Part shown: in pieces, positions 10,428-10,497 of the stretch
Layout of the letters: each line of letters begins with the position of its first letter
Position numbering within the stretch: position 1 is the stretch's first letter
Source of the DNA: Escherichia phage N30
DNA: 39,266 nucleotides
Sequence record: NC_048078.1
Direction: 5' to 3' (one strand)
Translations under genes and position numbers: made by a program
Notes under the pieces: model-generated
What the model saw: only the letters and a program-made list of their open reading frames with translations
Databases searched by the model: none
Told to the model about the DNA's origin: nothing

Positions 10428-10470
10428 TAATTGAACTCACTAAAGGGAGACCACAACGGTTTCCCTTTGT
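10428..10470 (+). promoter_or_regulatory. Phage promoter phi3.8-type with downstream leader hairpin
   Basis: TAATTGAACTCACTAAAGGGAGA (+1 G at 10445) followed by GGGAGACCACAACGGTTTCCC stem-loop. Confidence 0.8.
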
Positions 10471-10497
10471 TCGCATTGTTGATTAAGGAATAACCAT

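Follow-up and report, generated by a model that had tools for sequence, protein, structure and literature searches.

The 39,266-nt window analysed here is the whole stretch of Escherichia phage N30 in record NC_048078.1, read as one strand, and all coordinates are positions in this window. Our subject is the segment 10428-10497, in which a promoter of the phi3.8 type and a leader hairpin precede gene 4, the primase/helicase gene. We propose that this segment is the standard start of gene 4 transcription and translation and that it very probably represents an uninvaded, ancestral-type allele of the slot that is occupied by the HNH endonuclease gene 3.8 in phage T7. We read it in this way because the leader and gene 4 start of N30 are T3-like, the corresponding flank of T7 is the aberrant one, no remnant of 3.8 is present, and the scar left in a known deletion clone of T7 (T7_120S) looks different. 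Since the empty slot is most likely an uninvaded allele, the promoter reads, from its sequence and position, as simply the gene 4 promoter in N30. The direction of change is thereby corrected: T7 would be the invaded genome, while N30 and Escherichia phage C5 (MH717099 / NC_048079, Teseptimavirus; 100% identity to N30 over 9900-12900 by megablast) would have a plain gene 4 promoter.

Promoter, leader and start of gene 4

The 23-nt promoter TAATTGAACTCACTAAAGGGAGA has no mismatch to T7 phi3.8 (0/23) and four to the class III consensus (4/23). It begins 2 nt after the stop codon of gene 3.5, which is the placement of phi3.8 in T7 in a colinear alignment. A degenerate pattern search of the window returned 16 matches to T7 promoters, all on the + strand and pairing one-to-one with promoters of T7, where 0.02 would be expected by chance. 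Judged by its sequence, the element is a T7-group promoter in which the specificity bases are intact. N30 itself encodes the cognate single-subunit RNA polymerase, as positions 1-7319 align with T7 1-7361 at 89.8% identity (blastn) and this T7 stretch contains gene 1 (T7 3171-5822). By analogy with T7, the promoter would be active in N30, the phage RNA polymerase recognising it as a class II promoter and initiating at G10445. The equivalent promoter is named phi4A by the annotators of phage Kvp1.

The predicted transcript opens with a stem-loop that starts at the +1 G, takes up the first 21 nt of the RNA and has a folding energy of -12.2 kcal/mol. This hairpin recurs in T7 with one loop change, and the phi10 leader of N30 (21457-21477) opens with the identical stem and one different loop base (ACAGC vs ACAAC). 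Folding the leaders one by one, sequence by sequence, we found the +1 hairpin kept in ten phages of five named genera plus an unclassified Klebsiella phage. The stem is altered on both arms yet still paired in Kayfunavirus BDX03P1 (GGGAUGGGAC/GUCCUGUCCC) and in the Berlinviruses (GGGAGAGCC/GGUUUCUCCC). Because pairing at +1 is kept with different sequences, the hairpin is more than a by-product of the GGGAGA of the promoter. Directly 3' of the hairpin, the motif TTTGTTCGC is exact or near-exact in C5, T7, T3, SM9-3Y, Klebsiella phi1_146030, fPS-21, Kayfunavirus BDX03P1, Kvp1 and pO103.

The 53-nt leader runs straight into the gene 4A ATG, which is located 47 nt past the promoter end, 53 nt past +1 and 32 nt past the hairpin, and there is no + strand open reading frame (ORF) of at least 30 aa between 10427 and 10498. 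The first-pass annotation, made from the letters of the window, had described a phi3.8-type promoter and leader hairpin directly before gene 4 with no ORF in between; this description is borne out, and its estimate of about 45 nt up to the ATG was a fair one. The internal start of gene 4B (Met64) is found at 10687. In the RefSeq/GenBank record of C5, gene 4 begins at this 4B methionine, and the 63-codon zinc-binding N-terminus of gp4A (10498-10686) is unannotated, its ORF being intact.

With regard to function, the GC-rich hairpin would protect the 5' end of the message, and the AAGGA at 10485-10489 would then direct translation of gp4A from 10498. In read-through RNA from upstream promoters, the same hairpin would form the top of an irregular hairpin of about 24 bp (10424-10485), for which the predicted energy is -22.3 kcal/mol (z = -3.6; 0/200 shuffles fold as well). 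In T7, the RNase III site R3.8 is located just downstream of the phi3.8 start (PMC6938266), and the extended hairpin of N30 is its probable counterpart. RNase III cleavage of the N30 leader, like the role of the hairpin, is presumed by analogy with T7. Dunn and Studier are said to have placed the T7 R3.8 cut, in 1983, at about 23 nt after +1, which in the N30 leader would presumably map to CCCUUU^GUUCGC. No Rfam family scores above its gathering threshold anywhere in the window, and none covers the hairpin.

Two other explanations of the promoter and hairpin were considered. We attach practically no credence to the idea that both are functionless chance matches, a reading that is already refuted by the exact 23-nt identity to T7 phi3.8, by the 16 promoter sites found against 0.02 expected, and by the conservation of promoter, hairpin and TTTGTTCGC across the sampled genera. 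It is also very improbable that the hairpin and the UUUGUU behind it act as a terminator or attenuator limiting read-through from gene 3.5 into gene 4, instead of as a stabilising or processing element. Such a role would fit the GC-rich 8-bp stem followed by a U-rich stretch (CCCUUUGUU) and the drop in T7 transcript levels downstream of R3.8 / phi3.8 (PMC6938266). However, the post-stem bases are T at 5 of 8 positions and interrupted, the identical stem opens the phi10 (gene 10) transcript, which is expressed at a very high level, and no terminators are known in that region of T7, where the drop is ascribed to RNase cleavage and degradation (PMC6938266). As a terminator scan of the + strand did not flag the hairpin, it was rejected as an intrinsic terminator.

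Empty and occupied alleles of the gene 3.8 slot

T7 gene 3.8 encodes a 121-aa protein with a Pfam HNH_3 domain (E = 3e-15) and stands between phi3.8 and gene 4A, as the first-pass annotation had stated; a T7 arrangement with no ORF at this place was not found. N30 has no HNH_3 ORF between leader and gene 4 and thus an empty allele, and a tblastn search with gp3.8 detected no remnant in the whole window, the best match (E = 0.97) lying at another place. The empty junction is widespread, at least 80% of a 161-nt junction query being covered in 162 phage records and the match forming a single uninterrupted piece of equal length in each of the 20 records listed at that coverage. T3 (Teetrevirus, 80% identity), SM9-3Y, Klebsiella phages and an Aeromonas phage are among the matching records, and CICC 80001 is 99.4% identical to N30 across the junction. 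The whole leader and the first codons of gene 4 are collinear in N30 (...CCC TTTGTTCGCATTGTTGATTAAGGAATAACCAT ATG GAA TTA GAA CAA GAT AGT), T3 (...CCC TTTGTTCTCGCAACTGATTAAGGAATGTACA ATG GAA CGA GAA GAC GAT AGT, also given as TGATTAAGGAATGTACA before the ATG), SM9-3Y and Klebsiella phi1_146030. For T3 we used KC960671, where the ORF annotated at the gene 4 start is in the wrong frame, and corrected the start by sequence.

The T7-type occupied junction was found in 96 records; those listed are mostly laboratory derivatives of T7, the others being Yersinia pestis phages such as YpP-Y. Homologues of gp3.8 were found in 181 records at 60% identity or more and, at this slot, in phages of the genera Teseptimavirus, Przondovirus, Helsettvirus and Kayfunavirus. 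In all loci fetched and read for the placement of the gene (T7, phiA1122, fPS-21, IME335 and BDX03P1), 3.8 directly precedes gene 4. A primase/helicase is likewise named under or beside the gp3.8 match in four of the five annotated Klebsiella hits listed and in YpP-R; MG835568 lists the endonuclease alone. The comparison across T7-like genomes that had been proposed as a check thus shows collinear empty alleles and a patchy gene 3.8 at one slot.

The occupied loci suggest how the gene settles. In fPS-21 (Helsettvirus) and Kayfunavirus BDX03P1, the ATG of 3.8 takes the position that the gene 4 ATG has in empty alleles, behind a shared leader (…TTTGTTCGC…AAGGAGT(A/G)ACCA ATG), and a new AGGAGG ribosome-binding site (RBS) is located at the 3' end of 3.8, together with a new gene 4 start (MDN… or MVSS…). 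Gene 3.8 would accordingly land in the slot and take over the resident leader and RBS in these two phages, while in T7 and phiA1122 it would take over the resident leader behind a diverged RBS; in 5/5 loci read its 3' end would supply the new RBS and start of gene 4. The slot also holds other cargo. In IME335 (Przondovirus) the leader and 3.8 are separated by a small ORF (locus L011, 585-704), and the Berlinviruses Kvp1 (L008, 805-894) and pO103 (L009, 805-894) have a small hydrophobic ORF of ~29-39 aa between leader and gene 4. In T7, genes 2.8, 3.8 and 7.7 are described as its three homing endonucleases and can be deleted (bioRxiv 10.1101/2025.09.07.674715).

The direction of change follows from the flank. 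T7 homology ends at 10478 (...GTTCGCATTG) and resumes inside gene 4 at GATAGT, at ~10513. The sliding identity of N30 with T7 stays at 95-100% as far as the hairpin, falls to 52-77% over 10451-10690 and then returns to 85-100%. We split gene 4 at the internal 4B start, into nt 1-189 and nt 190-640, and compared both parts across phages. N30/C5 share 80 and 81% identity with T3 in the first and second part, respectively, and 75 and 76% with Klebsiella phi1_146030, and are therefore about equally distant from each in both parts, as vertical descent predicts. The identity of N30/C5 with T7 is 63% in the first part and 94% in the second, and T7 itself shows 61 and 79% with T3 and 57 and 75% with the Klebsiella phage. 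It is the first part of gene 4 in T7, and in phiA1122, that is aberrant, which indicates that the 5' segment of gene 4 is of foreign origin in the T7 lineage. This segment of ~190 nt encodes the zinc-binding domain and adjoins gene 3.8, so that 3.8 appears to have brought foreign flanking DNA into T7; these ~190 nt at the start of gene 4 would then be a co-conversion tract that entered together with the endonuclease gene.

The alternative is that an ancestor of N30/C5 carried 3.8 and lost it by precise deletion, or by conversion from a 3.8-free relative, with promoter and hairpin left behind. We consider this unlikely, even though 3.8 is dispensable, is deleted in mutant T7 clones and is present in close relatives of the same genus (T7 and phiA1122). 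The tblastn search found no trace of 3.8 in the window, the leader and gene 4 start of N30 are of the T3 / Klebsiella type and not of the T7 type, and it is the gene 4 5' segment of N30, not that of T7, which has diverged as expected from vertical descent. A documented loss provides a control. The mutant T7 clone T7_120S (locus L015, 401-640) has a 292-bp internal deletion of 3.8 with its endpoints at a short shared sequence (TATAA / TATAG). It keeps the T7-type RBS of 3.8, the first 3.8 codons and the T7-type gene 4 start, a scar of which N30 has no part.

Several points weigh against our interpretation of the segment. If 3.8 had been lost by recombination with an empty allele of the same genus, the resulting pattern would be identical to that of no invasion. 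The aberrant gene 4 segment of T7 is only 63-65% identical to that of the other sampled 3.8-bearing phages. In SM9-3Y, which lacks 3.8, the 5' segment has nevertheless been replaced (73% identity with T3 in nt 1-189, 98% in nt 190-640), so that the linkage between 3.8 and the flank is not strict. In the leader, the lower stem of the extended hairpin differs among N30, T7, T3 and the Klebsiella phage, and its assignment to R3.8 therefore draws mainly on position. Moreover, the functions of all N30/C5 elements are assigned by homology to T7. In the case of SM9-3Y (L014), the zinc-binding domain resembles the 3.8-linked type (HIP...SLFSDGH.YCY), and neither T3 (L005) nor SM9-3Y carries 3.8; the replaced segment may go back to an earlier exchange, or may mark an endonuclease gene that has since been lost. 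Actual homing of the endonuclease genes concerned is likewise inferred.

The HNH gene behind the phi4.3-position promoter and the endonuclease inventory

A free-standing HNH gene is present in N30 at the other end of gene 4. The promoter in front of it, TAATTAGACTCACTAAAGGAGG, comes after the stop codon of gene 4, where T7, CICC 80001 and phiA1122 have phi4.3, and it is the positional equivalent of phi4.3. It lies 8 nt upstream of the HNH ATG at 12248, and the predicted transcript would start GGAGGUAGCCAC AUG, with a very short leader as for T7 phi4.3 before gene 4.3. The encoded protein matches Pfam HNH_3 (E = 3.2e-12; 46.3 bits vs a cut-off of 24.8), and C-terminal helix-turn-helix matches are weak and below their cut-offs. 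It shares 44% identity with T7 gp2.8 and 45% with gp7.7, and has no BLASTP match to gp3.8. On sequence grounds it belongs with gp2.8 and gp7.7, and a relocated gene 3.8 was rejected because that match is absent and gp2.8 and gp7.7 are the closest T7 proteins. In the C5 RefSeq record the coding sequence starts at ATG 12212, upstream of the predicted +1 G12236 (region 12209-12247); ATG 12248, 7 nt after GGAGG and in agreement with the annotation of Bas102, is the more plausible start.

The gene is absent from T7, CICC 80001 and phiA1122, and from most hits covering 86% of a 3-kb query; close relatives such as CICC 80001 have a T7-type phi4.3 region without it. A few Teseptimavirus and Berlinvirus phages have it at the corresponding place after gene 4; the sites of Bas102, Kvp1 and pO103 were read. 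Proteins of 87-97% identity are encoded by JB01, AH67C600_Q5, Bas102 and LNA7; the site itself was read for Bas102, and the other three align with N30 over the whole 3-kb query. Kvp1 and pO103, both Berlinviruses, have homologues of 70% identity, which are likewise placed where gene 4 ends. An alignment of five sequences across the gene 4 / gene 4.3 junction, read by eye, shows a flank of the co-conversion type: identity with HNH-less relatives drops from about 95% to 58-72% in the last ~100 nt of gene 4, and gene 4.3 is 85-92% identical (vs T7 and CICC 80001), rising to 97-100% beyond 12838. The HNH ORF ends with GGAGGAAACACC ATG, which recreates the RBS of gene 4.3. An HNH gene of the gp2.8/7.7 type would thus have inserted behind the phi4.3-position promoter in the same manner as 3.8. 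In Bas102, the DNA polymerase gene (L010, 4015 onward) is annotated as joined from two pieces, which points to gene 5 being split by an intron or some other insert; gene 5 of N30 (13661-15775) is uninterrupted.

Compared to T7, N30 lacks genes 1.4, 2.8, 3.8, 5.3 and 7.7 (whole-window blastn/tblastn). Genes 1.4, 2.8, 5.3 and 7.7 are cleanly absent at 7493, 9519-9540, 15776-15778 and 18787-18793, respectively, flank homology resuming within a few bases. A blastn gap relative to T7 at 38076-38694 spans a second HNH-type ORF, which is matched in tblastn by gp2.8, gp7.7 and the HNH protein at 12248 (E = 2e-15 to 4e-17) and which has its own GGAGG RBS and no phage promoter directly upstream. Presence or absence of endonuclease genes at fixed sites is therefore real in this lineage, and to this extent the first-pass suggestion of cassettes gained and lost at promoter-proximal sites holds. 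Its picture of a promoter kept while the ORF was lost does not, as the empty allele is most likely uninvaded. Promoter proximity cannot serve as a general rule either, since only the 3.8 and phi4.3 sites lie directly behind a promoter, and those of 2.8, 5.3, 7.7 and the 38108-38551 ORF do not. The same annotation was correct in seeing a promoter before the HNH ORF at 12248, but its description of that promoter as very similar to the one at 10428 was generous: they differ at 5/23 positions, and with 4/23 mismatches to T7 phi4.3 and 2/23 to T7 phi1.5 it is nearer to these two, for which reason we rejected a duplicate of the 10428 promoter. Among the T7 proteins it had named for comparison with the HNH protein, gp7.7 proved apt, whereas gp3.8 gives no match and gp5.3 is a PD-(D/E)XK protein, not an HNH protein.

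The features discussed are collected in Table 1. The whole window is colinear with T7 (NC_001604) at ~85-95% identity, apart from a handful of insertions and deletions (blastn). Positions 1-159 and 39107-39266 match both ends of T7, pointing to a direct terminal repeat of ~160 bp, so that the whole genome is contained in the window. Its coordinates are offset by 332 relative to the 39,551-bp GenBank record of C5, the start point of which seems to have been set elsewhere. Over 34045-35237, in the distal portion of tail fibre gene 17, there is no blastn match to T7, which is the usual replacement of a host-range module.

Table 1. Features of the N30 window around gene 4, and the second HNH-type ORF
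Feature	Position	Strand	Remarks
Gene 3.5 (lysozyme/amidase)	9971..10426	+	ORF; annotated as amidase in C5; 3' end 95-100% identical to T7
Extended irregular hairpin, ~24 bp	10424..10485	+	possible in upstream read-through RNA; probable R3.8 counterpart
Class II T7-RNA-polymerase promoter, phi3.8 orthologue, TAATTGAACTCACTAAAGGGAGA	10428..10450	+	positions -17 to +6; +1 = G10445
5' transcript stem-loop, GGGAGACC-ACAAC-GGTTTCCC (arms GGGAGACC/GGUUUCCC)	10445..10465	+	8 bp, 5-nt loop
Conserved motif TTTGTTCGC	10466..10474	+	directly 3' of the hairpin
Tract of sharp N30/T7 divergence	10479..10690	+	52-77% identity, with 95-100% upstream (right up to 10478) and 85-100% downstream; T7 version read as the foreign one
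Shine-Dalgarno AAGGA for gene 4A	10485..10489	+	8 nt before ATG; TGATTAAGGA(A/T)T leader common to T3 and SM9-3Y
Gene 4A primase/helicase, 567 aa	10498..12201	+	ORF; N-terminal Cys4 zinc-binding domain aligns with T7 gp4A
Class II promoter, phi4.3 position, TAATTAGACTCACTAAAGGAGG	12219..12241	+	+1 = G12236
Free-standing HNH endonuclease gene, 139 aa	12248..12667	+	between phi4.3-type promoter and gene 4.3
Gene 4.3	12660..12872	+	ATG overlaps 3' end of the HNH ORF
Second HNH-type ORF, 147 aa	38108..38551	+	between gene 19 and phiOR; no T7 counterpart

Wider meaning and comparison with known systems

The promoter, the hairpin and the patchy gene 3.8 are well known from T7-group genomes, and nothing found here goes beyond known kinds; the genome of C5, identical over 9900-12900, is already public and annotated. 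N30 and T7 nevertheless provide a clean example of free-standing endonuclease genes that settle behind a resident promoter and leave a sharp foreign tract in an essential gene. This is useful for reading mosaic boundaries in T7-like genomes and for choosing deletion sites in engineered phages. A broader reading, which we put forward tentatively and regard as rather doubtful, is that the slot between the phi3.8 leader and gene 4 is a recurrent cargo site of the Studiervirinae (empty, or filled by 3.8, a small hydrophobic ORF or both), where 3.8 captures the gene 4 RBS and brings with it residues 1-63 of gp4A, a foreign version of the zinc-binding domain of the primase, in an exchange that stops at the 4B start. 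On this reading, an essential replication enzyme would have its template-recognition module exchanged between phage genera by a selfish endonuclease, and the same design of hijacking a leader and rebuilding the RBS from the 3' end would have been used independently by the gp2.8/7.7-type HNH gene at phi4.3.

Catalytically inactive T7 gp3.8, overexpressed from a plasmid, hinders the GAPS4 defence, and T7 without 2.8, 3.8 and 7.7 together is less fit against it (bioRxiv 10.1101/2025.09.07.674715). Based on these results, we speculate that phages lacking all three genes, such as N30/C5, might differ in their sensitivity to GAPS4.

The closest known system is T7 phi3.8 with R3.8 (NC_001604; PMC6938266). 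The 23-bp promoter and its position after gene 3.5 are identical in N30, the +1 hairpin is alike bar one loop base, and the trailing TTTGTTCGCATTG is identical. The next ORF after the promoter is the HNH gene 3.8 in T7, in contrast to gene 4A in N30. Gene 3.8, a free-standing homing endonuclease gene of the HNH_3 type, occupies the slot in T7, phiA1122, fPS-21, IME335 and BDX03P1 and is absent from N30. The gene 4 promoters and leaders of the 3.8-free phages T3 (KC960671), SM9-3Y, CICC 80001 and Klebsiella phi1_146030 share with N30 the order of promoter, +1 hairpin, TTTGTTCGC, TGATTAAGGA RBS and ATG GAA. Unlike N30, the T3-group phages have a T3-type promoter specificity (AATTAACACTCACTAAAGGGAGA), and in them the promoter is set apart from gene 3.5 by ~210 additional nt.

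Nuclease genes are associated with boundaries of genetic exchange in phages (PMC10448857). Similar to the co-conversion and marker exclusion described for SegE and SegG of the T-even phages (PMC10448857), sharp local divergence is found here beside a nuclease gene that is present in some genomes and absent from others; the likeness is one of pattern only. In the case of the HNH gene behind the phi4.3-position promoter, the nearest parallel is the HNH gene named 'gene 2.8' in Kvp1 (NC_011534), which shares with that of N30 70% protein identity and the location at the 3' end of gene 4, and pO103 is likewise organized. In Kvp1 the HNH ORF begins within the end of gene 4, which it overlaps, and phi4.7 and gene 4.7 come next, whereas in N30 it is gene 4.3 that follows.

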